From the NCBI GenBank assembly GCA_964555035.1, contig CAZKRK010000046.1, positions 1 through 29,411 of the forward strand: a stretch of DNA of 29,411 bases. Direction: 5' to 3'. The stretch's first letter is position 1. Each line of letters opens with the position of its first letter. The DNA comes from an uncultured Victivallales bacterium (GTDB lineage: Bacteria; Verrucomicrobiota; Kiritimatiellia; UBA8416; CAYOBW01). The notes beneath the pieces were generated by a model, which did no database searches, was not told where the DNA came from, and saw only the letters and a program-made list of their open reading frames with translations. Below are positions 133 to 28,460 of this stretch, in pieces. The position numbers and the translations under genes are program-made.

Positions 133-1581
133 ATGTCAAGCAGGAGACCGCCCATGAACCGTCCCCACTCTCGCCGCGCCTTTATGAAGCTTTCCGGGAT
201 CGGGGCGGCCGCACTGGCGCTGCCGGCCGCGGGCCGCGCACAGTCCGGCAAACGCCCACCGAACTTCGTGATCGTATTCCTAGACGATTCCGGCTGGGGG
301 GACTTCCGCCCGTTCGGCAAGCCGCAATACCCGACGCCCAACGTGGAGGAGCTTGCGCGGGGCGGGTGCCGTTTCAACCACTTCTGCGTACCGCAGGCCG
401 TCTGCTCCGCGTCACGTTCAGCGCTGATGACCGGCTGCTATCCCGGGCGCACCAAGGTGTTCGGCGCACACCCGCCGCGGGCCCGCGGCCTGGATCCGAA
501 ATTCGCCACCCTGGCGGAAGTGCTGAAGCCGAAGGGCTACAAGACCGCGGTCTTCGGCAAGTGGCATCTCGGCGATCAGCCCGACACGCGCCCGCCGGCG
601 CGAGGGTTCGACGAGTCCTGCGGCCTGATGTACTCCAACGACATGTGGAAGTACCATCCCGGCACGCGCCACTTCGACAAGTGGCCGCTCCAGTTCTGGG
701 ACAACGGCAAGATCACGATCGAAGACGTCACTCCCGAGGACCAGAAGAGCCTGACGAAGTGGTCCGCAGAGCACGCGGTGAGTTTCATCGAGCGGCACAA
801 GGACGAGCCGTTTCTCCTCTACGTCCCGCACTCCATGCCGCACGTTCCGCTCTTCTGCAGTGACGAGTTCGACGGCAAGTCGGGCCGGGGGCTGTACGCA
901 GACGTGATGATGGAGATCGACTGGTCCATGGGCGAAATCATGAAGGCGCTGAAGAAGGCCGGCATCGAAGACAATACGGTTGTCATGTTCACGTCCGACA
1001 ACGGCCCGTGGGTGTCTTACGGCAACCACGCCGGCGTTACGCCCTACCGCGAAGCCAAGGCCACCGGATTCGACGGCGGCATCCGTAGCGCCTGCATTGT
1101 CAAGTACCCGCCGCAAATCAAGGCGGGAACCACGTCCGAGCGTATGTTCAGTTCGCTCGACGTGCTGCCCACGTGCGCGGCCCTCGCCGGCGCGGAGCTG
1201 CCGAAAAACGAAGTCGACGGCAAGAACGTCTGGGATCTGATTACGGGCAAACCGGGCGCGTCGAATCCGCACGACTACTATCCCTTCTCAACCGGCGGTA
1301 CGTTTGAAGGCGTCATCGGCGGCGATGGGAAGTGGAAGCTGCACGTGCCCCATCGGTACCGGACGCTGGTGAAACCCGGCAACGACGGCAAGCCGGGCCA
1401 GTATAAGCAGGCGCGTATCGAACTCTCGCTGTTCGACATGGAAAACGACCCATACGAAACGACGAACGTGATCGACAAGCATCCGGAGGTCGCCAAAAAG
1501 CTGCAGGCCTACGCCGATGCACACAAGGCGAGATTCTACCGAAAATCGAAGCCCAAACCGAAAAGGAAAACCACCGGGTAG
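133..1581 (+). CDS. Formylglycine-dependent sulfatase (arylsulfatase family), TAT/Sec-exported
   Basis: The N-terminus SRRAFMKLSGIGAAALALPAAG is a twin-arginine-like signal. Sulfatase signature CSASRSALMTG (C-x-A/P-S-R) is present. FVIVFLDDSGWGD metal-binding motif is present. The C-terminal GKWKLH...ENDPYETTNV segment is typical of the family. The true start may be the internal Met at 154 (MNRPHSRRAF). Confidence 0.85.
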   Translation: MSSRRPPMNRPHSRRAFMKLSGIGAAALALPAAGRAQSGKRPPNFVIVFLDDSGWGDFRPFGKPQYPTPNVEELARGGCRFNHFCVPQAVCSASRSALMTGCYPGRTKVFGAHPPRARGLDPKFATLAEVLKPKGYKTAVFGKWHLGDQPDTRPPARGFDESCGLMYSNDMWKYHPGTRHFDKWPLQFWDNGKITIEDVTPEDQKSLTKWSAEHAVSFIERHKDEPFLLYVPHSMPHVPLFCSDEFDGKSGRGLYADVMMEIDWSMGEIMKALKKAGIEDNTVVMFTSDNGPWVSYGNHAGVTPYREAKATGFDGGIRSACIVKYPPQIKAGTTSERMFSSLDVLPTCAALAGAELPKNEVDGKNVWDLITGKPGASNPHDYYPFSTGGTFEGVIGGDGKWKLHVPHRYRTLVKPGNDGKPGQYKQARIELSLFDMENDPYETTNVIDKHPEVAKKLQAYADAHKARFYRKSKPKPKRKTTG

Positions 1582-1890
1582 CCCCCGTTCTGGCACTTCC
1601 CCAACACCTACGATCAACCGCCCTACAGCTCGGTGCGCAAAGGCGACTGGAAACTGATCTACCAGCACGTCACCCGGAAACTGGAGCTGTACAACCTTCG
1701 CGAGGATATCGGCGAGAAGAACAACCGTGCGCAGAGCAACCCGGCGAAGTTGAAGGAGTTGGCGGGCGCGCTGAGCGAACACCTGCGGGCATGCGGCGCC
1801 CCCATGTCGATCGACAAGGCTACAGGGAAGCGCATCGAGTACCCGTCGGAACTCTCAGTGGGCCGGATTTGTAATCCGGCCGAGAGATAG
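1582..1890 (+). pseudogene. 3'-terminal remnant (about 100 aa) of a second sulfatase gene, in frame just after the TAG of the upstream sulfatase
   Basis: The translation PPFWHFPNTYDQPPYSSVRKGDWKLIYQHV...LELYNLREDIGEKNNRAQSNPAKLKELAGAL matches the conserved sulfatase C-terminal subdomain (FWHxP, GDWKLI, LYNLxxDxxExNN). No N-terminal catalytic part is present. Its last codons and stop lie inside the TIR of the adjacent MITE-like element. Confidence 0.6.
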
Positions 1891-1984
1891 TCGAGGATGT
1901 TATCGAGAATGAACGGACCAAGGTCAGGCCATTCTCCCGGCATGCTCCACATTCTCTCGGCCGGATTACAAATCCGGCCCACTG
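1856..1984. repeat. MITE-like element with perfect 32-bp terminal inverted repeats (1856-1887 and 1953-1984), each carrying an inner 9-bp-stem hairpin ggccggatt-tgt-aatccggcc
   Basis: IR-L cagtgggccggatttgtaatccggccgagaga is the exact reverse complement of IR-R tctctcggccggattacaaatccggcccactg. The spacer is 65 bp. The element sits between two convergent sulfatase remnants. Confidence 0.75.
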
Positions 1985-2032
1985 AAGACGCACATGATTT
2001 GGGCGGTATCCGTCATTCCGCCGCGCTCCCGG

Positions 2033-2669
2033 TCACCGCTTCTTCTTGCGCGGCTTGCGTTGGCGCAACGGCGTGTTGTCCTCCGGCACCTTGAGCTCTT
2101 TGCGCAACCGGTGCAGCTCCGCCAGCAGCTCCTTCCGGACGGAGGCGTATTCGGGTTTGCCGTAGACGCTGTTGAGCTCGTTCGGGTCTTTCTCAAGGTC
2201 GAACAGCTCCCACTCCTTCAGTTGGTAGTAGTGGATCAGTTTGTGGTTGCCGGTGGTGACGCCGTAGTGCCGCGCCACGCTGTGGGCGCCCGGGAACTCG
2301 TAGTAGTGGTAATAGAACGACTTTCGCCAGTCCTCCGGCGTCCGTCCCTTGAAGAGCGGCACGAGGCTGCGTCCCTGCATGTCGGCCGGGACAGGCACAC
2401 CCGCCAGGTCGAGAAACGTCTCGGCTTGGCCCGCAGATGGAGTTGGTGACGTGACAGCGCGTGAACTTCATGCCGCCCTTGGCGATGCGGTCCATGTTGG
2501 GCGTCGTCATGCGCGTGGGGTCGTACGCGCTCAACGCCTGCTCGCAGTGGTCATCGGTGAAGATGAAGATGATGTTGGGTCGCTTGTCCTTGCCGACGGC
2601 GCGCGCCACGCCGCTAGCCAGTCCTGCCGTTCCCACCATCGCTGTCTTCATGAAATCACGTCGGTTCAT
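2033..2669 (-). pseudogene. Sulfatase pseudogene with an internal deletion of about 0.85-0.9 kb and a +1 frame change
   Basis: The N-terminal frame gives a TAT signal ([18 protein letters not shown]), [10 protein letters not shown] and the active-site motif [12 protein letters not shown]. At about 2421 the reading frame switches directly into [26 protein letters not shown]...[14 protein letters not shown]. That is the C-terminal PTLLDLAG/DGxSL/LYNLxxDPxE region of sulfatases. The locus is 637 bp, against about 1.4 kb for an intact gene. Confidence 0.7.
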
Positions 2670-2685
2670 GATATGTTCCCTTTCC

Positions 2686-2774
2686 GTAGAACCGTTCTCC
2701 AGGACGGTTCCAATCCGCGCGCGTTTGCAGTACCCCCTCAGGCTCTGCCGAACCGTCCTGGAGAACGGTTCTAC
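2686..2774. repeat. Inverted-repeat element with perfect 25-bp TIRs (gtagaaccgttctccaggacggttc), each with an inner 7-bp-stem hairpin gaaccgt/acggttc
   Basis: 2686-2710 is the exact reverse complement of 2750-2774, and the spacer is 39 bp. It lies between the tolC stop and the sulfatase pseudogene start. It may double as the transcription terminator of the macB-tolC operon. Confidence 0.65.
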
Positions 2775-2782
2775 AAGACAGC

Positions 2783-4111
2783 CTACCGCCCAACCGCGAA
2801 TTCGTACTCGCTCAACAGTTCCATGTACGTGGTCTGCAGGTTGATGAGCCTGATGCGGCTGTTTTCGAGGTCGTTCTGACTGCGGACGTATTCGAGGATG
2901 TCGATTTCGCCGTTGTCCCAGCGGTCGGCGTAGAGCTCGGCGCGCAGCTCGGAGACCTCGATTTTATCCTGCTGGATCCGGACAAGCTGCAGGGTCTCCT
3001 TGATGCGGCGGGCAAGTTCGCGGATGGACTTGATCCTGGATTGCTTAAGATCGTCGATAGCGATTTCGTCCGAGGCAATTTCGGTTGCGACTTTTCTGCT
3101 CTTGAGCCGCTCGGTCATGCTGCCCGGCTCCCACGAGAACGCCAACCCGACGGCGGTTTCGGTGTCGCCGTCCAGACCGAAGCCGTCCTCGCTGTCGCGG
3201 CCGGTCGTGGCCGAGAGCGTCACCTTCGGCCAACGGCGGGCGCGCTGCACGGGCAGTTCGTTTTCGCGTTGCTTCTTCTCGAGCTGCGCGTTGAGGATGT
3301 CCTCGTGGTTGGTTACTGCGAAAGCGGTATCCGCCCCGACATCGAGCTTGTGTTCGGCGAATTCGAAAGAGGCGTCGATTTCGATGTCCCGCGCGACATC
3401 CATGCCGATCAGTAGCTTCAGCTCGTCGAGCGCCGACTGTATCTGGCGCCTGGCCCGCAGGACCCCGGCTTCGGACTCGGGCACCTCGATCTTGGCCGTG
3501 GCGATGTCGAGGGGCCGTTCTCTCTCCAGGGCGTGCTCGAGGTTCTTACGTGAGCGCGCCAGCTTGAGCTCGTTGATGCGCAGGGTCTGGTGGTTGCGAA
3601 TCAGGCCGTAGTAGTCCTGCTTTACGCGGTAGACCAGCTCGCGTTCGTACTTGCGGACCTTGTTGCGTTCGATAAGCTCGCCGAGAATGCTGTTGTCGAT
3701 CTCCAGCATGGATTCCCGCCACGAGCCGCCGCCGACGATGACCTTCGAGAGCTTGAGGGAGAGGTTGGCGCTTTCCGTCTCGTCATCGCCGCTGTCTTCG
3801 CGCGTGGCCTTGCCCGTAGCCGAGGCCGTGATGCCGGCGGGAAGCTCCTGCTTGACCGTGGCGGATGCGCCGAGCTCGTCTTCATCGATGCCGCGGTCGG
3901 CGGATCCGCTGAGCGTCGGCCGGAACTTGCCGCGACGGATGTGCGTTGTCAGTTCCTGTCCGTCGAGAGCCAGCCGCCGCTTGGCCAACTCGCGCGAATG
4001 GCTCACCGCGTAGTCGGTGCAATCCTCGAGGGTCATGGCGTCCCGCGCCGAAACCGGCGCAAGCGAAACCAGCAGGGTCAGGATTGCGGCTGTGACCGGT
4101 CGCTTACTCAT
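2783..4111 (-). CDS. TolC-family outer-membrane efflux protein (OEP)
   Basis: There is a signal peptide [22 protein letters not shown]. The protein has alpha-helical coiled-coil-rich OEP repeats ([25 protein letters not shown]... and [19 protein letters not shown]). Its start overlaps the macB stop (TATGAGTAA), which indicates translational coupling. Confidence 0.8.
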
Positions 4112-6113
4112 ATCTCAACGCCTCAACGGGGTTCTCGGCGGCGGCCTGGGCCGCGGGGTAGATGCCAAACAGCAGGCCGGTCGCCGTCGATGCCAGAACC
4201 GAAAGCAGAACCATTGTCGGTGAGATCACGATCGGCAAGTCGAAAAACGTGCAGGTCGCGGCCACCACGGCGAAGGCGAGCAGGATTCCCGCAAACCCGC
4301 CGGTCACGGCGATGACCACGGACTCGGACAAAAACTGGTAGAGTATGTCCTGTCGCGTGCCGCCCACGGCGCGGCGGATGCCGATCTCCCGTGTGCGTTC
4401 CGTTACGGACGCCAACATGATGTTCATGATGCCGATGCCGCCGACCACGAGTGCGATGGAGGAAATGCATATCGTCAGAATGTCGAGCAACCGCTGCGAC
4501 TGCTGCTTCTGCTTCAAGAGATCGAGGGGCACCACAAGCTGAAAATCCTCCTGCCCGGCGTGAGTGGCATGCAGCAGCCGCCGGATGGCGACGCCGGCTT
4601 CGCGCAGGATGTCCTCGTCCTCCAGTTGGAGGTGGATTTCATCGATCTCGCTGCGCATATCGAGATGTCGCGTACGCGTGAGAATCGTGCGCAGGGGTAT
4701 GAGCAGATCGTAGTTCGCGTCGCTCACCCCCGTGGCTTCCAGTCCGGCGGTGTCGACCTGCCGGTTGGCCAGAACGCCGACAACGAGATACGGGTTGCCC
4801 CCGAGCAGAATCTGCCTGCCGATGATGCCGTCACGTCCCAGGCGTTCGGCAATGGCATGGCCCAACACGGCCACGCGCGCGCTGCGGGCCTGGTCGTCAG
4901 CGTCCGCGAAGCGGCCCTCTGCCAGCGACAGGTTGTTGACCGTCAGGTAGTCGCCGAAGACCCCGACGATTCGCGGTGACACCGGGCGCGCACTTTCGGT
5001 CACGAGGTTCAGCTTCACCTCCCGTGACGCCGCGGCCTTCTCTACCCCGGGGACACGCTCGACGATCTGCTCCATGTCCAGGAGGGAGAGCCCCTTCGAT
5101 CCGGCGATGCGGGTCTGCGACAGCTTCTCGCCTTCGAGGCGGCTGTCGGTTACGCGCACCAGGTTGGCCCCCAGAGCGCGGATCTGGTCGGCCTGCTTTT
5201 GCTTGCTGCCGAGCGAGAAGGATGACATGGCGATGACGCCCGCCACGGCGATGACGATGCCCAGCATCGTCAACGCCGTGCGCATCTTGTGGGCGAGAAG
5301 ACCTTCGCGAATACCGATGCGCAGCAGGTCCGCGAAGTGGATACCCCGGCGGCGCACCCGTTCTCCGGTCGCACGCGTCGCCTTGTGGCTGACCTTGCGC
5401 TTGCCGGGCACGTCTTCCACGACCAGCCCGTCGCGCATCACGATCTTCCGTGTTCCCGCATCGGCGAACTTGGCGTCGTGCGTCACCATGACGATCGTGT
5501 AGCCCTTGGCGTGGAGGTCGTAGAGCACGTCCAGGATCTCCTTGCCTGTGCGCGAGTCGAGGTTTCCGGTCGGTTCGTCGGCGAGGATGATGTCCGGCTC
5601 GTTCACGAGTGCACGGGCAATGGCCACGCGTTGGGCCTGTCCGCCGGAGAGCTCGCCCGGGCGGTGTTCGAGACGGTGTCCCAGTCCGAGCCGGTCAGCG
5701 TACTCGCAAGCGCGTTCGAGACGCGTGCGGCGGTTGATCCCGCTGTACACTTCAGCCAGGGCGACGTTCTCTTCTACCGTCAGGCCGCCGAGCAGGTTGA
5801 ATTGCTGAAAAACGAATCCCACGCGCTGGTTGCGTACCTGCGACAAACGTCCGTCCTCCAGCGCGGACACATCCTCACCGTCGAGAAGATACTCGCCCGA
5901 GCTGGGCACATCGAGACAACCCAGGATATGCATCAGCGTTGACTTGCCCGACCCGGAGCTGCCCATGATGACGACGAACTCGCCGCGGCGTATGTCGAGG
6001 TCGACCCCGTCGAGAGCCCGCACGACGTGCTCGCCCATGGTGTAGTGCCGCCGAATGCCGCGCAGCCGCATCAGCGGCGCGGCGGCGGAATCGGATGATG
6101 GAGGCGTGGGCAT
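4104..6113 (-). CDS. macB: MacB-type ABC transporter, fused ATPase plus FtsX-like permease
   Basis: The N-terminal ABC domain carries Walker [10 protein letters not shown], the signature [15 protein letters not shown] and Walker [13 protein letters not shown] helix is followed by a long periplasmic domain. The C-terminal FtsX permease segment reads [25 protein letters not shown]. The 669-aa length fits the MacB architecture. The likely true start is an internal Met ([10 protein letters not shown], about 6071). Confidence 0.85.
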
Positions 6114-7589: not shown

Positions 7590-7738
7590 TCCTTGTAGGT
7601 TACTGGGGTTCCTGGTCCCTCCCGGACAAGAAATCGGATACTAACGAAAAGGAGCCGAACAAATCAAGCACCGGTTCGCTGAGTCCGCGGCCGCGGGCGC
7701 ATCTCGATCTGCTGCACTTGCCGAGTGGCCCCCACCGG

Positions 7739-7784
7739 GATAAGCCCGGCGGGGGGGCCTCGGCAAATGCAACAAATCGGCGCC
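7739..7784 (+). promoter_or_regulatory. About 45-bp upstream motif (gataagcccggcgggg...aaatgcaacaaat) 72 bp before the helicase ATG
   Basis: The motif recurs at 17775-17824, upstream of the lipoprotein gene. It shares the identical 13-mer aagcccggcgggg and an aaRtgcaRcaaat block. The spacing to the ATG is nearly the same (72 vs 68 bp). Confidence 0.4.
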
Positions 7785-7856
7785 ATTGTCAATCCGCCCC
7801 GTTTGTGCCATTTTTCGAGCATTGTGAAGACCTCCACCGAGAACATTGCGGCCGGG

Positions 7857-10800
7857 ATGAGGCAGAACCGGCTCTTTCTCGACCTCGAAACAACCCGGAG
7901 CGGACGCATTCGCAAAGTCGGCGCCGTATTCGGCGATCGTGTTGTGTCGTCGGCACACGACGGGGGCGTGCAACGGGCGCTGTCCATTCTGGACCGAATA
8001 GCCGGCCAGGCCGAGTGCCTCGCGGGACACAACATCGTCGATCACGACCTGCCTGCTCTTCGCCATTGCCGTGCGGACTTGAAACTCCTGCAGGTTCCCG
8101 TGATCGATACGCTCTACCTCTCGCCGATCTGCTTTCCCGAAAATCCCTATCATTGCCTGGTCAAGGACTACAAGTTGGTCTCGGAAACCGTCAGCGATCC
8201 TGTCGAAGACGCCCGCCTGGCCGCAACGCTGTTCGAGGACGAAATCGCGTCTCTGATCGGTATCCGAGAAAGCAGTCCCGAGCTTTTCAAAGCGTTGCAC
8301 CTGCTGACCACAAAGACATCGCCGTCGGATCCCGGATCTCATGCGACCGGAATGAGGCATCTGTTCCGGAGCCTCGGGGCCGACGCGGTCACCGATGACG
8401 CGCTCGAGTGTGTCCGCGGGATGGCGGCGCAGTACGGCTGTCGAACGGCAGCCGTACGCTTGGACCACACGAACCTCACGTCCGCGCAGAAGTGCTGGGC
8501 GCTGGCCTTCGTGCTGACCTGGTTGCGCGTGTCCGGCTCGGATTCCGTCATTCCGCCCTGGGTGCGGCACCGCCACCCGTCCGTCAGCGTATTCCTTCAT
8601 GCGCTCCGGGATGTTCCTTGTGACGACGCGGATTGCCGGTATTGTGCCGAAACCCACAGTCCCGAGAAGCAGCTCAAGCGGTTCTTCGGGTTCGACTGCT
8701 TCCGACCCACGCCGCATGATGGGAACGGCGGCAGCCTGCAACGCCGCATCGTGTTGGCGGGGATGCAGGGAGAATCGCTCCTGGCGATCCTGCCGACAGG
8801 CGGCGGCAAGTCACTCTGCTACCAACTGCCCGCACTTGTCCGCAGCGTCCGGCGAGGGCAGTTGACGGTCGTGATCTCCCCCCTGCAGGCGTTGATGAAA
8901 GACCAGGTGGACGGGCTGCAACGCCGCACCGGCCTTGAAAACGCCGCCGCGCTCTACGGCCTTCTGACGCCGCCCGAGCGTGGTGACGTACTCCGACGTC
9001 TCAGGACAGGTGACATAGCGGTTCTGTACGTATCTCCGGAGCAACTCCGCAACGCTTCCTTCACCAGGGCAATCTCGCAGCGGGAGGTCGGTTGCTGGGT
9101 CGTCGACGAGGCGCATTGCCTGTCGAAATGGGGACACGATTTCCGCCCCGACTACCTCTACATCGGCCGCTTCATGCGCGAGCTCGCCAAGCGTCAGGGA
9201 TGCCCCTTGCCTCCCGTTGCCTGTTTCACCGCCACGGCCAAGCGCGATGTCGCCGAAGAGATCATGGCCTACTTTCAACGTGAGACGGCCATGCCCGTTG
9301 CCCTCTACCAGGGCGGCGTCGAACGCGAGAACCTGTGTTTCGAAGTGCAGACAGTCAGCGCGCCGGCCAAGCTGGGGCGAATCGACGAGTTGCTGCACGA
9401 CCGATTGGATGCGAACGGGAACGAAGGAAGCGCGATCGTCTTTCGTACTACGCGCCGGCTCGCCGAAGAAACGGCCGAGTACTTGTGCAACCAGGGGTGG
9501 CAGGCGGCGTTCTTTCACGCCGGCATGACGCCGCCGGAAAAGAAGCGCACGCAGGACGCGTTTCTCGACGGCGAGCTGCGCGTGATCTGCGCGACGAACG
9601 CGTTCGGCATGGGGATCGACAAGGACGACGTCAGGCTTGTCGTGCACGGCGATTCGCCGGCTTCGATCGAAAACTACCTGCAGGAAGCCGGCCGGGCGGG
9701 CCGTGATCGCGGCCGTGCCGACTGCGTGTTGCTCTATGACGAGGAGGACTGCGAGCAGCAGTTCCGTCTCGGCGCCTTTTCAGAACTGAGCCGGCGCGAT
9801 ATCGCCCAGATTCTGCGCGGGCTCCGTAAAGCCACCCGCACGCACGGCTCGGACAGCGTCGTGATCACGACCGGCGAGCTCATGCGCGACGAGGATGTCG
9901 ACACCACATTCGGGCCCGAAGACCTGTCGGCCGACACCAAAGTACGCGCCGCGATGTCCTGGCTCGAACGTGCCGGCTTCGTCGAACGCAACCAGAATCG
10001 CACCAACGTCTTTCAGGCGCGCCTCCTGGTACGCTCCACCGGGGAGGCGGAGGAGAAGCTCGCGCAGCTCGGCCTGTCCGACGCGGAGTCCCGGCTCTGG
10101 CTCGCCATCGTGCGTGAAATGATCAATGCCGGGGAAACCGACAGCCTGACCGTAGACGGGTTGGCTCTGCTGCCTGAATTCCAAGGCTATCTGAAGACCG
10201 GGGCGGAGTTCATACCGCACCATGTCGTGCGCGAGGGACGCAGCCAGGAGTATCTGAGTTCAAAGGTCCTCAAGGTCCTTAACTCCATGACGAACGTCGG
10301 GATCATGAAGAAGGATACGCTGCTCACCGCGTTCATTGCCTACAAGGTGGCCAACCACTCGCGCGTGCGTTTCGATCGGGTCTGCGCGAGCGATCGCGAA
10401 ATGCTGAAGGTGTTGATGGAAGAAGAGCCCGATCCGGAAGGCTGGCTGCCGCTCAATCTCCGTCTGCTGAACCAGACATTGCTGGATCGCGATGTTTCCG
10501 CGTCACCCCCTTTCCTGCGCAGGTTGTTGCGCAGCTTGAGCGAGGACGGCAAAGGGTTCTCGGGACAAAGGGGCAGCATCGAGTTGCGCCACGTCGGCCG
10601 CGATGCCTATCGGGTTCGGCTGCGGCGCGAGTGGGCACAGATCGCGGAGCTTGCCGAACGCAGGCGTCGCGTGGCCGGTGTGCTGCTCGACGCGATTGTC
10701 TCCAAAGTGCCGTCCGCCACTCCGCCTCGAGCGGACCTCCTCGTGGAGTTCTCTTTCGAAGAACTGACCGCCGCGCTCAACCGGGATCTCGCTCTGCGCT

Positions 10801-13073
10801 CGGACGTCCGCGACATGCAGGCCGCCATCGAACGGGGACTCATGTTCCTGCACGAGCAGAATGTCATTGTCTTGCAGCAAGGACTGGCGGTGTTCCGCTC
10901 GGCCATGACCGTTCGTGTGCTGCCTGAATCGAAAGGGCTGCGCTACACGCAGGACCAGTACCAGGCGCTCGAGCACCACTACCGCGAACGTGTGTTCCAG
11001 GTGCACGTCATGAACGAATACGCCCGGTACGGGATCGAGAAGATCCAGGAGGCGTTGGCTCTGGTTGTGGCATACTTCACAATGGAGAGGGAAGCCTTCA
11101 TTGCCCGCTTCTTCGGATCACGCCGCGAGCTCTTGGAACGTGCAACGACGGCACGCTCATACCGTCGGATTGTCGATGCCCTGGGCAACCGCGAACAGAT
11201 CCGCATCGTGACGGCGCCGCTCAACAAGAACATGCTCATCCTGGCGGGACCCGGATCGGGAAAGACGCGCACCGTCGTCCACCGGTGCGCCTACCTGTTG
11301 CGCGTGAAACGCGTGCGCCCCTCTTCCGTTCTCGTCTGTTGCTTCAACCACAAGGCAGCGCTCGAATTGCGCAGACGCCTCGCGGAGCTTGTCGGCCGCG
11401 ACGCCTGCGGCGTCACGGTTCAGACATACCACGGATTGGCCCTGCGACTGCTGGGGTTCTCGTGCAGCGCGATGAAACCGGACGCTCGCGATTCGCTCGA
11501 CTTCGACAGGTTGATCGTGGACGCCGTGGACCTTCTTGAAGGCGGAAAGGCCGCGGCTGGCCTCGAATCCGACGAAACGCGTGACCGGCTCTTGGCGGGA
11601 TACGAACACATCCTCGTCGACGAGTATCAGGACATCGACGAGGCGCAGTACCATATGATCGGCGCAATCGCCGGGCGGACCCTTGAAGATGGCGATCGCA
11701 AGCTCACCATCCTTGCCGTCGGAGACGATGACCAGTCCATCTACGGTTTCCGCGGCGCGAACGTCACGTTCATTCGCCGTTTCTGCGAAGACTTCGAGGC
11801 CGCCACACACCACCTCGTCGAGAACTACCGGTCTACCCGCTACATCATCGAAGCGGCGAACAGCGTCATTGCCCGCAACCGTGATCGAATGAAGTGCGAC
11901 TTGCCTATTCGCGTTGACGAAGGCCGCCAGCTTTCCCACCCCGGGGGGGCGATTGCCTCACTGCATCCGGAGACAAACGGACGCGTTGCCGTCGTCTCCG
12001 TGCGGGATGACGCCGCACAGGCTGTCGCCGCCGGGACCGAGATTGAGCGGCTTCGGACCCTTGGCGCGAAAGACTGGTCTCGAACGGCAATCCTCTCGCG
12101 AACGCGCCGCGATTTGTCGCTCGTACGCGTCGCGTTGGAGGCGAAATCGATTCCGGTCCAATGGCCTCTGCAGCGCAACAAGCTGCCCTCGATCTACCGA
12201 ATGCGCGAGGTCCATCGTGCTCTCGGCACACTCCGCGAGATGCGAAGCAGCAACAGAACGGCATCGGAGCTCTTCGAGCGCGTCGTCATGCCACCCGGTT
12301 CTTGCGGCAACGCGTGGGCGGGCATGATCGAATCCCTCTTGAGCGCATGGCAGGACGAAACCGGCAACGCCAGCCTTCCCGTTGGTGCTTGCGTCGATTT
12401 CCTCTACGAGTCGCTCGCACAGCGCCGGAGAGACGAACAGTTTGGCGTCGGCGTCGTCCTGAACACGGTCCACGCGGCCAAGGGAACGGAGTACGACCAC
12501 GTTATTCTTTGCGGCGATTGGTCCAATGGGAGCAATGCCGCGGACATCGAAGAAGAACGCCGCGTCTTCTACGTCGGCATGACACGTGCGCGGCATTCGC
12601 TGTGCATTCTCGATCGCGCCGATACGCGCAACCCGTTCCGTGGAGAGCTGGTTGGCCCTTGTTTCGCCCCGCGACATGAGATGGGCCCCGCGAACGGCAA
12701 TCTCGCCTATCGCGACTACACGCTGCTTGGTCTCGATGACATGTTCCTGGACTTTGCGGGCCGGCAGCCGGCCCGCCACCGCGTTCACGAGGCTCTGTCC
12801 GAGCTGAAGCCCGGAGCATCTCTGCAGGCACAAGCGCAGGATGGCCGCGTCTGGCTGGTCCATGGGGCAGGGACAACGATCGGCGCTTTGTCCGCACAGG
12901 CGACAGAACTCTGGCGCGATCGCCTCGACGACATCGACTCGATCCGCGTGGTCGGAATGTACACGCGCCTGCGCGAGGACATCGGCGACAGGAACTTCCT
13001 TGCCCGCATCCGCTGCGACTCGTGGGAAGTCCCGGTCTGCGAGGTCCGCTCCATGCCGGCCGGGCAGGACTGA
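7857..13073 (+). CDS. Giant multidomain DNA helicase: N-terminal DEDDh 3'-5' exonuclease, RecQ-family helicase core, and C-terminal UvrD/PcrA-type SF1 helicase (1738 aa)
   Basis: Exonuclease motifs are Exo I LFLDLETT, Exo II GHNIVDHDLPAL and Exo III DPVEDARLAATLF. RecQ motifs are PTGGGKSLCYQLPA (motif I), VVDEAHCLSKWGHDFRPDY (DEAH plus the RecQ signature) and FHAGMTPPEKKRTQDAFLDGELRVICATNAFGMGIDKDDV, ending at QEAGRAGRD (motifs IV-VI). UvrD motifs are AGPGSGKT (I), ILVDEYQDID (II), VGDDDQSIYGFRGA (III), ENYRSTRYI (IV), VHAAKGTEYDHV (V) and VFYVGMTRARHSL (VI). The start is placed at MRQNRLFLDLETT so that Exo I lies at the N-terminus. The ORF track starts it at 7725. Confidence 0.85.
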   Translation: MRQNRLFLDLETTRSGRIRKVGAVFGDRVVSSAHDGGVQRALSILDRIAGQAECLAGHNIVDHDLPALRHCRADLKLLQVPVIDTLYLSPICFPENPYHCLVKDYKLVSETVSDPVEDARLAATLFEDEIASLIGIRESSPELFKALHLLTTKTSPSDPGSHATGMRHLFRSLGADAVTDDALECVRGMAAQYGCRTAAVRLDHTNLTSAQKCWALAFVLTWLRVSGSDSVIPPWVRHRHPSVSVFLHALRDVPCDDADCRYCAETHSPEKQLKRFFGFDCFRPTPHDGNGGSLQRRIVLAGMQGESLLAILPTGGGKSLCYQLPALVRSVRRGQLTVVISPLQALMKDQVDGLQRRTGLENAAALYGLLTPPERGDVLRRLRTGDIAVLYVSPEQLRNASFTRAISQREVGCWVVDEAHCLSKWGHDFRPDYLYIGRFMRELAKRQGCPLPPVACFTATAKRDVAEEIMAYFQRETAMPVALYQGGVERENLCFEVQTVSAPAKLGRIDELLHDRLDANGNEGSAIVFRTTRRLAEETAEYLCNQGWQAAFFHAGMTPPEKKRTQDAFLDGELRVICATNAFGMGIDKDDVRLVVHGDSPASIENYLQEAGRAGRDRGRADCVLLYDEEDCEQQFRLGAFSELSRRDIAQILRGLRKATRTHGSDSVVITTGELMRDEDVDTTFGPEDLSADTKVRAAMSWLERAGFVERNQNRTNVFQARLLVRSTGEAEEKLAQLGLSDAESRLWLAIVREMINAGETDSLTVDGLALLPEFQGYLKTGAEFIPHHVVREGRSQEYLSSKVLKVLNSMTNVGIMKKDTLLTAFIAYKVANHSRVRFDRVCASDREMLKVLMEEEPDPEGWLPLNLRLLNQTLLDRDVSASPPFLRRLLRSLSEDGKGFSGQRGSIELRHVGRDAYRVRLRREWAQIAELAERRRRVAGVLLDAIVSKVPSATPPRADLLVEFSFEELTAALNRDLALRSDVRDMQAAIERGLMFLHEQNVIVLQQGLAVFRSAMTVRVLPESKGLRYTQDQYQALEHHYRERVFQVHVMNEYARYGIEKIQEALALVVAYFTMEREAFIARFFGSRRELLERATTARSYRRIVDALGNREQIRIVTAPLNKNMLILAGPGSGKTRTVVHRCAYLLRVKRVRPSSVLVCCFNHKAALELRRRLAELVGRDACGVTVQTYHGLALRLLGFSCSAMKPDARDSLDFDRLIVDAVDLLEGGKAAAGLESDETRDRLLAGYEHILVDEYQDIDEAQYHMIGAIAGRTLEDGDRKLTILAVGDDDQSIYGFRGANVTFIRRFCEDFEAATHHLVENYRSTRYIIEAANSVIARNRDRMKCDLPIRVDEGRQLSHPGGAIASLHPETNGRVAVVSVRDDAAQAVAAGTEIERLRTLGAKDWSRTAILSRTRRDLSLVRVALEAKSIPVQWPLQRNKLPSIYRMREVHRALGTLREMRSSNRTASELFERVVMPPGSCGNAWAGMIESLLSAWQDETGNASLPVGACVDFLYESLAQRRRDEQFGVGVVLNTVHAAKGTEYDHVILCGDWSNGSNAADIEEERRVFYVGMTRARHSLCILDRADTRNPFRGELVGPCFAPRHEMGPANGNLAYRDYTLLGLDDMFLDFAGRQPARHRVHEALSELKPGASLQAQAQDGRVWLVHGAGTTIGALSAQATELWRDRLDDIDSIRVVGMYTRLREDIGDRNFLARIRCDSWEVPVCEVRSMPAGQD

Positions 13074-13139
13074 GTTCGTCGATCGCTCCGCCTATGCCGC
13101 CCCTCCGGGGCTTGTTTCCATGCTCGACGCATGTGCGGC

Positions 13140-13251
13140 AAACGTAGGTCCGATTTGCAATCGGACCCAACTCCGGTCGGGTCTGGTCAGCCGTGGCGTT
13201 ATCTGAGGCAACCAGCGGGGTTGGGTCCGATTGCAAATCGGACCTACGTTT
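13140..13251. repeat. MITE-like element with perfect 32-bp TIRs (13140-13171 and 13220-13251), each with an inner hairpin ggtccgatt-tgc-aatcggacc
   Basis: IR-L aaacgtaggtccgatttgcaatcggacccaac is the exact reverse complement of IR-R. The spacer is 48 bp. The inner hairpin has the same architecture as the 1856-1984 element, with two compensatory stem changes (c:g to t:a and g:c to c:g). It lies between the convergent helicase genes. Confidence 0.75.
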
Positions 13252-13350
13252 ACCGCTCACGCACGTTCCGGCCCTCGGGGAGTCACGAAGCATCCGCTTC
13301 TTCCGCACGAAGGTGTCACAGTTGTTTCCGAGAGGTAAGGTAGTCTGGGC

Positions 13351-16122
13351 CTACGGTCGCGCCAACTCCGCCTCGACGCGCGCGACGAGGTCCAGTCCCT
13401 CTTGGAGAGCACCATCGCCGTCGCTTCCGCCGCCGTCGAAGGCGGCCAGGGCAGAGACGAGGGCTGCGGGTTCTGTCGGGAGCTCGGAACCGTCGCCGTC
13501 GGGCTTTGTTCCGGGACCGTGGTGCAGGACGACGACCGCTTCGCGCCCCGCTCCCAGAACCGTCGCAAGGTGCGGGAGTGCCTGCTCCGCAAGACCCACA
13601 CCCGCCAACGCCTCGACGGCCTTGCGCTCGGCTGCGGTCGTTGCCCAGACCTTGCGTGCCGCGGCACGGTGGAGCTTCGGCTTGGGCCGTTCCCGCGGGG
13701 GCAATGGCGTGTAGCCGTCGGCGGCATGTACCGTATCGATGTCGGCGGACAGCGTGAGGATGCCCATTTCCTGAAGCCGCAGCAGCATCGCGTGCATCTC
13801 CGGCGTAATGACCTCGGCCGTGGCGCCTGCCGCCTCGGCCGTATCGCGAAGCGCATCGAGGTCCGTTCCGGGGCGCGACACGACTACCGTCCCGCCGGTT
13901 TTGGCGTTGCGTTCGATGCCGAGGATGATGTCCGCGTGGCGCGCCGTGAGTTCTTCCTTCAGTGTCCTGGGTTTCTCTTCGCGAGCCGGTGGGGCAGGCG
14001 CCACGGGCTCCCCGCCCAGCAATTCGCCGACGCGCGCCGCAAAGGCCTGGCGACCGGTTTTGCCGCTCGGCCGTTCCTCGAACGCGGCCCCGTCCAGCAC
14101 GGAGTCGGCCAGCGCGGTCTTGTACGCCAACTTGTCGAGCATGGCGCTTTCGATCGAGCGTTCCGCGACCAGGTTGACGACGCGCACGCTTCGCTTCTGG
14201 TGCTTGCGCCAGGCCCGCGCGATGCGCTGCTCCAGCTTCGCCGGATTCCAGGGCAGGTCGAGGTTGATCACGATGTTCGCGGCCTGCAGGTTCAGACCCG
14301 CGCCGCCTGACTCGGACGAGAGAAACACGCGGCAGTCGGCATTCTGCTTGAACATGCGGATCTGCTCGCGCCGTTTCTGCTGGGGGATTCTGCCGGTGTG
14401 TTCCGCGAACCCGATTCCTTTTGCGGTCAGCAGTTCCTTTACGAGGTCGAGCATGCGCACCCACTCCGAGAATATGATGACCTTCGCCTCCGGGTCGTCA
14501 CCCAGCAGGTCGTCGAGGATGTTCTCCAGCTCCTCCAGCTTCGGACAGTCACGGCACTCGGGGTCAAGGATGTAGGGCGTGTCGCAGATCATGCGCATGC
14601 AACCCAGCAAGAGCAGAAGGCGTTCCTGCTCCTTCTTCGTCAACGGGCGCCGTTTCATGATCGAAACGAGCATGGCCACGTCGTATTCGATCTCGGCATA
14701 GCGCGCCCGCTGCTCTTTTGTCATGGAAACGAAGAAGTTCTTGTCGGTACGTTCCGGCAAGGCGTCTTCGACGTCGCTCTTGCGGCGGCGCAACATCACC
14801 GACGAGACCGTGCGGTGCAGCTTGTCCAGGTTCCTGGGGCGGACCTCGTTGTCGGAAGTGAGTTCCATAAACGCGCGCTGAAAACGGAAGAGCGACCCGA
14901 ACACGTGTGGGTCGACGAACTCGACCAACGAGTACAACTCCTCGATGCGGTTTTCCAAGGGCGTTCCGGTCAGCACGAATGCGTATGGACTGCGCACCCG
15001 CTTGATCGTTTTGGCGGTCTTCGTGGGCCAGTTCTTGATGCGTTGCGCCTCATCGAGGATGACGAGGTCCGGAACGAGCAGGCGGTTGATATCGTCCACG
15101 TCATTGCGTACCTGCTCGTAGTTGCAGAGGCTGTACGGATGCTCCTCGGCATAGAGGCGCAGGCGGGCGGGCCGCGATCCGAAGACCGGCTTGGCCTGGC
15201 GGCCGGTGAACTGCATGATCTGGTCCTCCCACTCCGCCTTGAGCGAAGCGGGGCTGACCACCAGCACGCGGCGCACGCGGCCGGACTGGCGCAGCAGCTC
15301 GGCGGCGGCAATCGCCTGCACCGTCTTGCCGAGCCCCATCTCGTCGGCCAGCAGGGCGCGACCGGTGAAAGCCAGATGTGCCATGCCCGCTTTCTGATAG
15401 GGGTACAAGGGAAGGACAACGGGGTTGTCGGTGCGTTTGGCGGCTGCCACGTCGCGATCGAAATGCCGCCGCAGCTCGTCAAGGTCCGTCCTGAACCTCT
15501 CTCGCTCGAGCCAGTAGTCGACGTGTTCGGACAGACGCACGCCCTTCCGCGCCGATGCGGTGAGCATGGCCGTGGCGCGTTCCGCGGCCGTGCACGCGTC
15601 CGTATTGCCGGCCAGGGCGAAGCCTTCATCGCCGAACAGCGACCCCACGCGCCTCTCGACCGCGGCGATGCCCGCTGCCGGCCGCAACAGGCGCAACCGC
15701 GGATTGGGTCCGCGAACGTCCATGAAAATCTCGTAGGCAGGCGATCCCGCCTTTGCCGCGCGGGCAAAGGCGCGCTTCTTGCGGTGCTGGATGAACTGCC
15801 GCACACGCTCGATGTGCTTGCAGCACCCGAGGCGGTTCATGCGGTAGTCCTGACACGAACAACTGTTCAGGTTCTCCGACAGACTCCGAATCTCGACGCG
15901 GTAGGGTTGCTCCCACTGCGTGGACGAGACCTCGAAGAGACCGTGGAAATCGTCACGCATCGCCACGCGGGTGACCTGCGCCTTTTCCTTCTCGGCACTC
16001 TCGCGCCGCAGCACGATGCTCTGCTCATCCGTCGGAAAGCCAACCCGTTTCGGTGGCCGTTTCTGGACCTGTTTGGCCTTCTTGCTTCTGCGTTTCTTCC
16101 GCGTCTTCCGTTCCAAGCTCAT
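13351..16122 (-). CDS. SNF2-family (Swi2/Snf2) DNA-dependent ATPase/helicase with an N-terminal SWIM zinc finger
   Basis: The SWIM finger is CSCQDYRMNRLGCCKH. SNF2 motifs are LADEMGLGKT (I), LVILDEAQRIKN (II, DEAQ), VLTGTPLENRIEELYSLVEFV (III), and the C-terminal helicase domain LSSESGGAGLNLQAANIVINLDLPWNPAKLEQRIARAWRKHQ. A basic N-terminal tail and an Ala/Gly-rich region of about 250 aa at the C-terminus are uncharacterised. Confidence 0.9.
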   Translation of the reverse strand: MSLERKTRKKRRSKKAKQVQKRPPKRVGFPTDEQSIVLRRESAEKEKAQVTRVAMRDDFHGLFEVSSTQWEQPYRVEIRSLSENLNSCSCQDYRMNRLGCCKHIERVRQFIQHRKKRAFARAAKAGSPAYEIFMDVRGPNPRLRLLRPAAGIAAVERRVGSLFGDEGFALAGNTDACTAAERATAMLTASARKGVRLSEHVDYWLERERFRTDLDELRRHFDRDVAAAKRTDNPVVLPLYPYQKAGMAHLAFTGRALLADEMGLGKTVQAIAAAELLRQSGRVRRVLVVSPASLKAEWEDQIMQFTGRQAKPVFGSRPARLRLYAEEHPYSLCNYEQVRNDVDDINRLLVPDLVILDEAQRIKNWPTKTAKTIKRVRSPYAFVLTGTPLENRIEELYSLVEFVDPHVFGSLFRFQRAFMELTSDNEVRPRNLDKLHRTVSSVMLRRRKSDVEDALPERTDKNFFVSMTKEQRARYAEIEYDVAMLVSIMKRRPLTKKEQERLLLLLGCMRMICDTPYILDPECRDCPKLEELENILDDLLGDDPEAKVIIFSEWVRMLDLVKELLTAKGIGFAEHTGRIPQQKRREQIRMFKQNADCRVFLSSESGGAGLNLQAANIVINLDLPWNPAKLEQRIARAWRKHQKRSVRVVNLVAERSIESAMLDKLAYKTALADSVLDGAAFEERPSGKTGRQAFAARVGELLGGEPVAPAPPAREEKPRTLKEELTARHADIILGIERNAKTGGTVVVSRPGTDLDALRDTAEAAGATAEVITPEMHAMLLRLQEMGILTLSADIDTVHAADGYTPLPPRERPKPKLHRAAARKVWATTAAERKAVEALAGVGLAEQALPHLATVLGAGREAVVVLHHGPGTKPDGDGSELPTEPAALVSALAAFDGGGSDGDGALQEGLDLVARVEAELARP

Positions 16123-16269: not shown

Positions 16270-16297
16270 AGGCTCACACCTTGTAAAGTGTGAGCCT
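16270..16297. terminator. Hairpin aggctcacac-cttgtaaa-gtgtgagcct overlapping the ArsR stop codon
   Basis: It has a 10-bp perfect stem. It is nearly identical to the palindrome at 16897-16930 at the other end of the same gene. Confidence 0.5.
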
Positions 16298-16907
16298 ACC
16301 CCTCCATGCAAGCGATTCGTACCAACTCATGCGCAAGAGGCGATAACTTCCGCGCCAGGGCGTATGTCCCGCGTTGGTTCCGGACGACAATGTCACGGCG
16401 CACCAGTTTGCTCACATGACGCTTCATCGCCGGCAGAGAAATGCCGCATCGAACAACCAGTGCCACAATCGACAACCCCGGCGAGCGATTCAGTTCCCGC
16501 ACGATCCGGATGCGTCTAGGATGTGTGAAAGCTGTAAGGTTCCGAAACGCCCCCTCGATGGCGCCTAGGCGCCTGGAAAGCTGTCGTTTCATCGCGGTGA
16601 CAAGGGCCTCGGAAAACGAGATCGTGCTGTTTGGAGACACAGTGTACACGACCCAACGACTCGTCCGCCGCGCATCCAGGATGCCTCTGGCGTTGAGAGC
16701 CCGAAGACATTGGCTCGCACTGGATTCCGATATGCCTACCTGCGCGGCGACATCGGAGACGCACTGCCGTTGATGTCGAAGCAGAAACCGCAACACAGCG
16801 AGCCGTCTCCGGTTCGCCAATGCCCGGCATGTGCGCCAAAGCGTAGGACTGAGTGAACGCGCGTTCTCCATACCATCTCCAAGTAGACACCTCAACGCCA
16901 GGCTCAC
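16296..16907 (-). CDS. Transcriptional regulator with two tandem ArsR/SmtB-type winged-HTH domains
   Basis: The first wHTH is CRALANRRRLAVLRFLL...VSDVAAQVGISESSASQCLRALNARGIL. The second is RRIRIVRELNRSPGLSIVALVVRCGISLPAMKRHVSKLVRRDIV. The track start is a GTG at 16907. An internal ATG start (MENARSL) at 16871 is possible. Confidence 0.7.
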   Translation of the reverse strand: MSLALRCLLGDGMENARSLSPTLWRTCRALANRRRLAVLRFLLRHQRQCVSDVAAQVGISESSASQCLRALNARGILDARRTSRWVVYTVSPNSTISFSEALVTAMKRQLSRRLGAIEGAFRNLTAFTHPRRIRIVRELNRSPGLSIVALVVRCGISLPAMKRHVSKLVRRDIVVRNQRGTYALARKLSPLAHELVRIACMEG

Positions 16908-16930
16908 ACGTTATAAGGTGTGAGCCTGGC
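16897..16930. promoter_or_regulatory. 13-bp-stem palindrome gccaggctcacac-gttataag-gtgtgagcctggc overlapping the ArsR start region (candidate operator)
   Basis: It is identical in core to the 16270-16297 hairpin (caggctcacac ... gtgtgagcct, loop ttRtaaRg). ArsR-family proteins bind dyad-symmetric operators that overlap their own promoters. Confidence 0.5.
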
Positions 16931-17062: not shown

Positions 17063-17170
17063 GGTGACACCATTGATTGATGATTCCCGATTGATGATTT
17101 GTGATTTTCGAAGTACTTCACAAATCATCAATCATAAATCGCTAGTCATCAATCAGACGAAGGTGTCACC
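17063..17170. repeat. AT-rich compound palindrome of about 108 bp (ggtgacacc ... ggtgtcacc) with internal gattgatgatt direct repeats and perfectly complementary arms ttgatgatttgtga/tcacaaatcatcaa around ttttcgaagtactt
   Basis: Seen directly. It is very AT-rich against a background of about 67% GC. It lies in the shared upstream region of the ArsR gene and the lipoprotein gene. Confidence 0.6.
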
Positions 17171-17360: not shown

Positions 17361-17460
17361 CCACAACCCAAGTGTGGCATAGGTAGAAAAACGGGAAGGT
17401 AAGAAGATGGGAGAATTGACGGCATCATCTTTCTACCATCCCATCTTTCTGCCTATCATC
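17361..17460. repeat. Copy 1 of a 100-bp conserved structured element (the second copy is at 28361-28460)
   Basis: It shares 76 of 100 identities with 28361-28460, gap-free and collinear. It folds as an extended hairpin. The outer stem is ggtagaaaaacggg/cccatctttctgcc and the inner stem is ggtaagaagatg/catctttctacc. Each arm is a tandem duplication of a GG(Y)AGAAARATGGG-like unit. The loop contains a conserved attgaSgg. Confidence 0.6.
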
Positions 17461-20811: not shown

Positions 20812-20827
20812 CGCTCGGAGACTGGTA

Positions 20828-20966
20828 CTGGAGACGGCGGTCCTCCGCCGTTACGGAGCAAGGTGTTGAGCACAAACGGAAACAGAAGTGAACGAAGTTC
20901 CCGCATGTTCCACCAAGTGCGCACTCACTTGCGCGCAACGGCGGAGAACCGCCGTCTCCAGTGGCG
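20828..20966. promoter_or_regulatory. Inverted pair of the 27-bp ggcggagRaccgccgtctcc(agtggcg) motif flanking about 90 bp, immediately upstream of the membrane-protein gene
   Basis: 20828-20849 ctggagacggcggtcctccgcc is the reverse complement of the motif core. 20940-20966 is the forward copy. Confidence 0.5.
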
Positions 20967-26897: not shown

Positions 26898-27043
26898 GCA
26901 CGGATCCGCCTTCGCCGAGCTACGGCGGGACACGACGGGTTTCCGCGCTACCGTCCGTCGCCCACGACCTCCCTCCCCCGTCGACAAGCCGAAACAGGTT
27001 CGGGACAAGACCCGCAAGCCCCGCGCTTCGTAGAGCGTCCGCA

Positions 27044-27066
27044 GGTGCGTCTTGGAAAGACGCACC
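27044..27066. other. Perfect hairpin ggtgcgtctt-gga-aagacgcacc between the SPFH gene and rtcA
   Basis: It has a 10-bp stem. It is flanked by a long-range imperfect inverted repeat, cttcgtagag (27028-27037) / gtctacgaag (27131-27140). It is a possible attenuator or terminator upstream of rtcAB. Confidence 0.4.
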
Positions 27067-27204
27067 GGAGGGCGCAGGCCGGGCAAACCCCACCTCTCGT
27101 CTCCGGCCCGCGCGACGCGCGGGCCTCCGGCGAGTCTACGAAGACACGCCCCCGCCACCGGGGGCCGGGGTACGCCCCTGCGTACCTCCGGCTCCCCGGG
27201 CCGA

Positions 27205-28360: not shown

Positions 28361-28460
28361 CAACAACCCAAGTGTGGCACAGGCAGAAAAATGGGTTGGC
28401 AGAAAGATGGGGATATTGAGGGTGTCGTTCCTCTGCCAGCCCATTTTTCTGCCTTTCATT
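28361..28460. repeat. Copy 2 of the 100-bp conserved structured element, 50-150 bp upstream of the SPFH gene start
   Basis: It holds a perfect 14-bp inverted repeat, ggcagaaaaatggg (28383-28396) / cccatttttctgcc (28440-28453). These enclose the inner stem ggcagaaagatg/cgttcctctgcc and the loop atattgagggtgt. It is 76% identical to 17361-17460. Confidence 0.6.

Follow-up and report, generated by a model that had tools for sequence, protein, structure and literature searches.

The window, i.e. the whole 29,411-nt stretch analysed here, is a 29-kb metagenome scaffold, SUTE22-1 scaffold_3035 of ENA ERZ23498658, and the same sequence was also found in other samples; the population is represented in JGI 3300009128 and 3300009320 and in ERZ23498660 as well. 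Besides its protein-coding genes it carries a tRNA gene (28886-28959), which was the sole match in the window to Rfam at the gathering threshold; a permissive Rfam scan yielded only sub-threshold matches to generic miRNA-precursor hairpins. Four doublets of hairpins were located, all of them intergenic (Table 1). E1 lies between a sulfatase gene (133-1581, + strand) and a truncated sulfatase gene (2033-2669, - strand), and E2 between the gene for a 1782-aa DEAD/UvrD helicase (+ strand) and an SNF2 helicase gene (- strand). Both gene pairs are convergent, and this gene context agrees with that given in a first-pass annotation of the stretch, made from the sequence alone. E3 is located between an OEP gene and the truncated sulfatase gene, and the fourth element between rtcA and a Band7 gene, the flanking genes being co-directional in both cases.

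Table 1. Repeat elements in the window and their components.
Feature	Position	Strand	Description
E1, complete doublet assigned to the REPINs, GGCCGG subfamily	1855..1985	.	Perfect 33-bp arms; putative mobile unit GTGG...CCAC = 1858-1982
E1 left REP, GTGGGCCGGATTTGTAATCCGGCC	1858..1881	+	GTGG head, 9-bp stem and 3-nt loop
E1 spacer, 77 nt	1882..1958	.	Imperfect palindrome; conserved within the subfamily
E1 right REP	1959..1982	-	24-mer identical to the left REP
E3, third heads-outward doublet	2686..2774	.	25-nt perfect arms, 39-nt spacer
E2, complete doublet assigned to the REPINs, GGTCCG subfamily	13133..13258	.	Core GTAG...CTAC = 13144-13247
E2 left REP, GTAGGTCCGATTTGCAATCGGACC	13144..13167	+	
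E2 right REP	13224..13247	-	24-mer identical to the left REP
Fourth GTAG...CTAC-bounded element, cttcGTAG...CTACgaag	27026..27143	.	Two different inner hairpins (heterodimer)

The inverted arms are perfect over 33 bp in E1 (1855-1887 and 1953-1985) and over 32 bp in E2 (13140-13171 and 13220-13251), so that the 32-bp arms reported previously were correct to within 1 nt. With mismatches allowed, the inverted-repeat scan extended the arms to 45 nt at 91% in E1 and to 47 nt at 91% in E2 (13129-13175 and 13216-13262). The hairpin within each arm has a stem of 9 bp and reads GGCCGGATT-tgt-AATCCGGCC in E1 and GGTCCGATT-tgc-AATCGGACC in E2, and direct reading of the sequence confirmed that the two inner hairpins differ at two stem pairs, both of which are compensated. 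While this hairpin-in-arm architecture was found as first described, its defining component had been missed, namely a GT[AG]G head that adjoins the hairpin on the outward-facing side in every arm, the last G of which (GTGG in E1, GTAG in E2) is also the first base of the stem. According to the published definition of REPs (PMC6006769), a GTAG or GTGG tetranucleotide is followed, after 0-2 nt, by a hairpin whose loop measures 2-5 nt and whose stem is fully paired over 7 bp or more. All four arms of E1 and E2 have this structure, with the head 0 nt from the stem, a stem of 9 bp and a loop of 3 nt. In both elements the REPs are inverted, with their heads outward, and are separated by short spacers (77 nt in E1, 56 nt in E2); that of E1 forms an imperfect palindrome, GAGAGA..GAGCATG..GAGAATG / CATTCTC..CATGCTC..TCTCTC.

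A chance origin is excluded by comparison with shuffled sequences. Of 200 shuffles, none folded as well as E1 (-54.1 kcal/mol, z = -13.4) or E2 (-49.6 kcal/mol, z = -13.3) when treated as single-stranded DNA. The minimum-free-energy structure of each element is one long hairpin; the left REP hairpin of E1 alone gave -10.5 kcal/mol. Regarding the window as a whole, GT[AG]G heads combined with a perfect hairpin of at least 7 bp occur nine times, compared with 1.17 times in block shuffles, and the degenerate hairpin pattern has four exact occurrences, compared with 0.07 expected in shuffles.

Strong, GC-rich hairpins between convergent genes might also be bidirectional intrinsic terminators of the ordinary kind, as the first-pass annotation had itself considered, or RNA structures specific to single genes that resemble each other by accident. 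Either origin is extremely improbable. No T-tract follows any of the hairpins, the tails of which read gagaga and caactc, and the terminator scan called no site at E1, E2 or E3; an identity as intrinsic terminators was rejected on these grounds. The helicase gene upstream of E2 has a terminator-like hairpin of its own (13099-13111), close homologues of the SNF2 gene are without a hairpin of this kind, and the genes on either side of E3 and of the 27026 element are co-directional. Moreover, the same 24-mers and whole elements recur beside unrelated genes in many genomes and metagenomes.

In the case of E1, the 125-nt unit (1858-1982) could be aligned over its entire length, spacer included, with 15 copies found in other metagenomes. 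For copies of the E1 type at least 11 different flank contexts were counted, most of them from one metagenome, and the flanks outside GTAG/CTAC are unrelated. In the alignment of the 16 elements including E1 the mean column identity was 79%, and the pairwise identity was 95% within the arms and 60% within the spacers; the similarity ends at GTAG/CTAC. The E1 spacer itself was 48-75% identical to those of the other copies, and 70-75% identical to those of the nearest relatives, and the E1-type doublets in the metagenome scan had spacers of 77-80 nt. The consensus fold of the 16 copies is a single long hairpin of 39 pairs in which the spacer is paired as well. In this fold 96.5% of the cells were paired, compared with 27-47% when the partners were slid against each other, and nine pairs were changed on both sides, compared with 3.2 +/- 1.2 in shuffles (0 of 500 shuffles reached nine).

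A 24-mer identical to the REP of E2 is present in MAGs of Planctomycetota and Victivallales. Over its full length E2 is 80% identical to positions 5308-5418 of a Planctomycetota MAG locus (L027), and its spacer and outer flanks align with two further loci (L081 and L115). For E2, as for E1, it is thus the whole doublet that was copied, and not the REP alone. About 10 nt outside each head of E2 (GCGGCAAAC / GTTTACCGC) are common to these relatives, the outer sequence of the family being GCGGCAAAC-GTAG...CTAC-GTTTRCCGC in L027, L081 and L115. This shared outer sequence is not predicted by a simple picture in which GTAG marks the end of the element, and it counts against that picture: either the GTAG...CTAC core is not the whole unit, or palindromic targets are favoured for insertion. 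Nesting in palindromic flanks has been described by Di Nocera et al. for other families of GTAG REPs (PMC3733652). Contigs from other samples break inside E2, as would be expected of a repeat. The spacers of E1 and E2 had been called unrelated, which holds for the comparison between the two elements but not within their subfamilies, where each spacer is conserved. E1 and E2 accordingly represent two subfamilies, each with a conserved spacer of its own, and are not copies of one element with random spacers.

Regarding the two further doublets, each arm of E3 reads GTAG-AACCGT-tctccagg-ACGGTTC, and the element folds to -32.1 kcal/mol (z = -8.4); a second copy of E3 was not found among the fetched loci. 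The 27026 element (fold z = -5.1) is 80.5% identical over 118 nt to positions 5547-5662 of L027, with the second hairpin compensatorily changed. Among the fetched loci, copies of the 27026 type were found in L027 only, and this locus holds elements of the E1, E2 and 27026 types together.

The distribution of the hairpin was determined with the pattern GTRGGNCNGATTTGNAATCNGNCC, in which four stem positions and one loop position are free, in a set of one genome per species (596 Gb), where about nine matches are expected by chance according to our calculation. At least 73 loci were found, mostly in Planctomycetota MAGs, including at least 16 loci in one Planctomycetaceae MAG and at least 14 in a Planctomycetota MAG from groundwater. 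Among the matches listed, several were from Gemmataceae and Schlesneria, and others from Verrucomicrobiota, Victivallales (Lentisphaerota), Ignavibacteriota, Chloroflexi and a few further groups. Searching metagenomes for the stem types of E1 and E2 yielded 60 loci. The element family postulated from the two copies in the window therefore exists, and it is present in multiple copies in related genomes and metagenomes. A scan of viral contigs gave three hits.

A loop-oriented rescan of the loci from the genome scan gave at least 133 copies, 131 of which (of 133) carry GTAG or GTGG, a proportion that includes about 100 seed matches already selected by the pattern for the head. Among the matches listed, neighbouring copies formed 43 heads-outward doublets versus nine other arrangements, and the spacers were mostly 8-10 nt long, ranging up to 125 nt. 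The free stem positions test the fold without bias, because complementarity at these positions was not demanded by the pattern. Among the matches listed, they were Watson-Crick paired in 95% and 94% of the 102 seed copies, respectively, a count that includes copies related by descent. Reduced to the 27 unique 24-mers, 81% and 78% were paired, compared with 33% and 37% under permutation; the highest values reached among 2000 permutations were 63% and 67%. The pair types observed were A:T, G:C, T:A and C:G at one position and G:C, A:T and C:G at the other, and seven fully complementary stem types occurred among the matches listed (GGACGG, GGACAG, GGTCGG, GGTCCG, GGCCGG, GGGCGG and GGGCAG). The head, the apical GATT/AATC and the TGY loop are invariant in the family. 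With Watson-Crick pairing at about 95% and three to four pair types per position, the fold is conserved by covariation; selection on the fold, which had been proposed from the two window copies, thus holds at the level of the family.

REPINs consist of two GTAG-tagged palindromic repeats, and their copying around bacterial genomes is attributed to RAYT, a domesticated IS200-like tyrosine transposase. Such doublets are the REPINs of Bertels & Rainey (PMC3116915), and pairs of REPs with GTAG outward correspond to the 'HH dimers' of Di Nocera et al. (PMC3733652). E1 and E2 are ordinary members of this known class (REPINs, or GTAG-tagged REP doublets), and it is very probable that they are REPINs in the full sense, i.e. 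inverted pairs of REPs with the GT[AG]G heads outward and a subfamily-specific spacer between them.

The label 'MITE-like' in the first-pass annotation was appropriate insofar as a small, non-autonomous family is concerned, but not as to the type with terminal inverted repeats and target-site duplications; the proper name is REPIN, or GTAG-tagged REP dimer. Classical MITEs are deletion derivatives of insertion sequences with a DDE transposase and are mobilised via their terminal inverted repeats, and the small size of E1 and E2, their long and perfect terminal inverted repeats and their lack of coding capacity would all suit such elements. Target-site duplications, which had been suggested as a check, were not observed around the 15 related copies or around E1 and E2. 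If the flanks of the latter two show any symmetry, it is an inverted one (TCA-GTGG..CCAC-TGA at E1, AAAC-GTAG..CTAC-GTTT at E2), and those right outside GTAG/CTAC share no repeat across the 16 copies. Each arm is moreover a hairpin with a GT[AG]G head, which is the type of substrate used by HUH-Y1 enzymes, and the only transposase-type genes seen flanked by the hairpin were RAYTs (in the fetched loci, searched with RAYT motifs and queries only). An origin as DDE-type MITEs is accordingly very improbable, and this identity was rejected because of the missing target-site duplications and the linkage to RAYTs. An empty site was not found; the contigs of four SNF2 homologues (74-79% identity) keep neither the helicase pair nor the REP, and the neighbouring genes differ.

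In three other genomes or contigs from metagenomes (L073, L028 and L149), RAYT genes have clear copies of this REP hairpin on both sides. The RAYT of a Melioribacteraceae locus (L073, 4720-5310) scored 92.8 bits on the NCBIfam model NF047646 (REP_Tyr_transpos; cut-off 80) and is located between heads-outward doublets, two on one side and three on the other. In an Akkermansiaceae locus (L028) the RAYT (2534-3229) scored 71.6 bits on the same model, which is below the cut-off of 80, and is flanked by REPs at 2446 and 3301; thousands of homologues of this protein were found, often named RayT by JGI. Both proteins carry the NHVH, WQ and Y..NP motifs and are about 29% identical to each other. Of the homologues of the L028 protein, the RAYT P0125 (in L149/L150) is enclosed by GTAGGGCGGATTTGCAATCCGCCA arrays. 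A second one (P0189, in L148) belongs to a Planctomycetaceae MAG that was also found in the REP scan and is accompanied by one degenerate REP copy, and a third homologue, from Planctomycetota (P0222), is flanked by a different GTAG hairpin. An ORF in L076, weakly RAYT-like (37.7 bits) and 1.1 kb away from the nearest REP, was set aside. The autonomous partner of IS200/IS605 type suggested in the first-pass annotation thus corresponds, in other genomes, to a RAYT, i.e. an HUH tyrosine transposase related to IS200/IS605 that has this hairpin at its sides.

Within the window, no RAYT was detected by a motif search (regular expression) and by phmmer with two RAYT queries against all six-frame ORFs, nor any transposase by Pfam scans of 20 window ORFs, in line with the earlier statement that none is nearby. 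This absence is expected, since RAYTs are described as typically occurring in about one copy per genome (PMC5581495). A cognate RAYT is presumably encoded elsewhere in the genome of the source organism.

In the paradigm established for TnpA_REP of Escherichia coli and for TnpA of IS200/IS605, the enzyme acts on single-stranded DNA, binds the REP hairpin and reads the adjacent GTAG, where it cleaves and rejoins the strand without leaving a target-site duplication (PMC6006769). The anatomy of E1 and E2 fits this paradigm by analogy: the head and the apical stem are invariant, the basal stem covaries, target-site duplications are lacking and nothing is encoded. By the same analogy, the substrate would be transiently single-stranded DNA, e.g. 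the lagging-strand template. The RAYT would bind the REP hairpin, read the GTAG 'guide' and cleave and rejoin the DNA there, and the doublet might thereby be excised or copied and re-inserted without a target-site duplication. The whole unit of about 105-125 nt can also fold as one long hairpin. If recognition depends on the fold, the head and the apical GATT-TGY-AATC, basal stem pairs should change only with compensation, which is exactly the difference between E1 and E2. The copies E1 and E2 themselves may be mobile in this way.

Alternatively, E1 and E2 might be immobile relics, or REP-derived hairpins domesticated by a host that has no active RAYT left in its genome, with supposed roles in the protection of mRNA 3'-ends, in the attenuation of read-through between convergent genes or in the binding of nucleoid proteins or gyrase. 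The extragenic position of all four doublets, with E1 and E2 between convergent genes, and the lack of a RAYT in the window are compatible with this view, and roles of this kind are credited to REPs in the literature (as stated in PMC3733652). That decay occurs is evident from the E1-type copy in L027, which is without its right arm. The usual fate of REPINs is decay to single REPs, and this copy fits that course. Domestication would, however, add a function rather than provide a different identity, and the arms of E1 and E2 are perfect over 32-33 bp while the spacers of the family have diverged to about 60% identity, a combination more easily explained by recent copying or by continued recognition than by passive decay. 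E1 and E2 are thus unlikely to be immobile relics or domesticated hairpins. REPINs may nevertheless have a secondary role in the host here, e.g. in mRNA 3'-end protection or transcription attenuation.

Among known systems, E1 and E2 closely resemble the REPINs of Pseudomonas fluorescens SBW25 as described by Bertels & Rainey (2011, PMC3116915) and in PMC3337134: two inverted REPs fold together with their spacer into a single long hairpin, the elements lie outside genes and are non-coding, and single REPs occur as decayed remnants. Multiple copies and RAYT genes flanked by the same REPs are common features too, as far as the relatives of E1 and E2 in other genomes and metagenomes are concerned. 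They differ in the hairpin, which is GGNCNGATT-TGY-AATCNGNCC here, and in the host, an uncultured bacterium of the PVC superphylum and not a gammaproteobacterium. They share with the GTAG REPs of Di Nocera et al. (2013, PMC3733652) the GTAG head (GTGG in some families), stems of 6-9 bp, the predominance of dimers with GTAG outward and conserved spacers of 20-100 bp, the presence of several families per genome and the nesting of some dimers in palindromic flanks. GTAG REPs were reported in the same paper from Rhodopirellula baltica (Planctomycetes) and Opitutus terrae (Verrucomicrobia). As GTAG REPs, GTGG variants, HH dimers and their occurrence in PVC bacteria are all published, the kind of element is known, including from this superphylum. 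The sequence of the hairpin was absent from the searchable literature and from the supplements of PMC3733652 in a literal sequence search, and it probably represents a family not catalogued among the 24 families of Di Nocera et al., as judged from these supplements and the searchable literature.

The REP/BIME elements and TnpA_REP of E. coli (Quentin et al. 2018, PMC6006769) are alike in that a 5' GTAG guide lies beside the hairpin and that the enzyme is of the HUH-Y1 type, with the motifs HUH, WQ and Y...NP. The BIMEs of E. coli pair unlike REPs (Y and Z), whereas E1, E2 and E3 are homodimers, and the biochemistry is established for the E. coli enzyme only. In IS200/IS605 elements, too, a related Y1 transposase recognises subterminal hairpins on single-stranded DNA, and no target-site duplication is left, but these elements carry their own tnpA (and tnpB) and their left and right ends differ, whereas E1 and E2 are symmetric and have no coding capacity.

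In annotations, the appropriate label for these loci is REPIN or REP repeat, and not terminator, sRNA or MITE; their identity as REPINs also accounts for the breaks in assemblies of the source population at these points. The poorly studied PVC superphylum thereby gains a well-defined family of REPINs, comprising two subfamilies with conserved spacers, and the natural covariation series of this family separates the constrained parts of a REP (head, apical stem and loop) from the changeable basal stem pairs. One REP core, consisting of a GTRG head, an apical GATT-TGY-AATC and covarying basal pairs, recurs across several phyla and beside RAYTs that are only about 29% identical. Whether this core belongs to a single, very old REPIN-RAYT lineage, or to one that moves between phyla, is a tentative idea that we consider possible rather than probable. 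In the prevailing picture, REPIN populations are lineage-restricted and strictly vertically inherited, and an old or phylum-crossing lineage, if real, would be awkward for that picture and would define the minimal DNA determinants recognised by a whole RAYT clade. Should the sharing across phyla reflect common descent or the transfer of REPIN-RAYT systems, it would bear on the persistence of intragenomic replicators.

Contigs of the same population from other samples (L003 and L004) stop within E2, the REPIN at window 13133-13258, at positions 13176 and 13192, and among the contigs carrying the SNF2 gene the longest is just 2-5 kb in seven of the 14 blocks. Both observations are consistent with a repeat or palindrome that disrupts assemblies. 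The AT-rich palindrome at 17063-17170 looks like a further repeated element of this kind, because its left arm is matched at 88% by positions 199-239 of L027 (a locus from a Planctomycetota metagenome-assembled genome) and window position 17155 is the exact start of contigs from two other samples. Copies of the E2 family, including those in the fetched loci L081 and L115, have about 10 nt beyond the GTAG/CTAC heads in common, (A)GCGGCAAAC ... GTTTRCCGC(T). From this alignment, either the mobile unit would exceed the REP doublet or a palindromic target would be used for insertion. Coordinates of the features in the window are summarized below.

Features of the window discussed in the text (forward-strand coordinates)
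Feature	Position	Strand	Remarks
Open frame beyond stop of plus-strand sulfatase	1579-1890	+	terminates inside E1
Truncated sulfatase	2033-2669	-	TAT signal, N-terminus and C-terminal SGSH_C part kept
Convergent helicase pair	7725-16122		1782-aa fusion protein vs 923-aa SNF2 helicase
E2 outer shared flanks	13133-13143 and 13248-13258		alignment with L081, L115
Hairpin AGGCTCACAC-n8-GTGTGAGCCT, two copies	16270-16299 and 16899-16929		either side of HTH regulator gene
HTH regulator gene	16296-16907	-	between the two hairpin copies
AT-rich palindrome TGATTGATGATT...AATCATCAATCA	17063-17170		left arm matches L027
Inverted doublet of ACGGCGG-n4-CCGCCGT hairpins	20827-20962		29-nt arms (93%), 78-nt spacer
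Hairpin AGGCAGAAAAATGGGTTGGCAGA	28381-28454		23-nt arms; upstream of Band7 gene

Other hairpins occur in the window. The two copies that flank the HTH regulator gene could represent paired operators or a different REP type; on the minus strand, the first copy bears a GTAG head. The inverted doublet at 20827-20962 is possibly a tails-inward REP dimer whose heads are degenerate. It has inward-facing GTAA and GCAA and lies between a Wzy_C gene and a 999-aa ORF without a Pfam match. The GGCAGAAAGATGGG motif of the hairpin upstream of the Band7 gene reappears at 17397-17454 as a second small inverted repeat.

Beside E1 (the REPIN at 1855-1985), the minus-strand sulfatase has about 250 aa of its middle absent. 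The plus-strand sulfatase ORF has its stop at 1581, and the same frame is open on to 1890.

Among loci elsewhere that carry a RAYT gene (REP-associated tyrosine transposase), the one on a Melioribacteraceae chromosome (L073) is surrounded by an array of five near-identical doublets (4174-6062) of about 170 nt each with a period of about 292-295 nt, each composed of GAATTGCATTC and GATTTGCAATC, two loop-proximal REP variants. On a Planctomycetota contig (L145, 3001-3675; also L146 and L147), the RAYT gene is located within a BREX defence operon, with pglY/brxC on one side and pglZ on the other, and is flanked by doublets of another GTAG hairpin, GTAGGATGGACT-tcca-AGTCCGTCC.

Of the convergent helicases around E2, the 1782-aa protein is a fusion of DEAD/Helicase_C and UvrD modules. 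Close homologues of the SNF2 helicase elsewhere have AbiE, PIN/MazE and similar genes as neighbours, a hint of a defence-island context.
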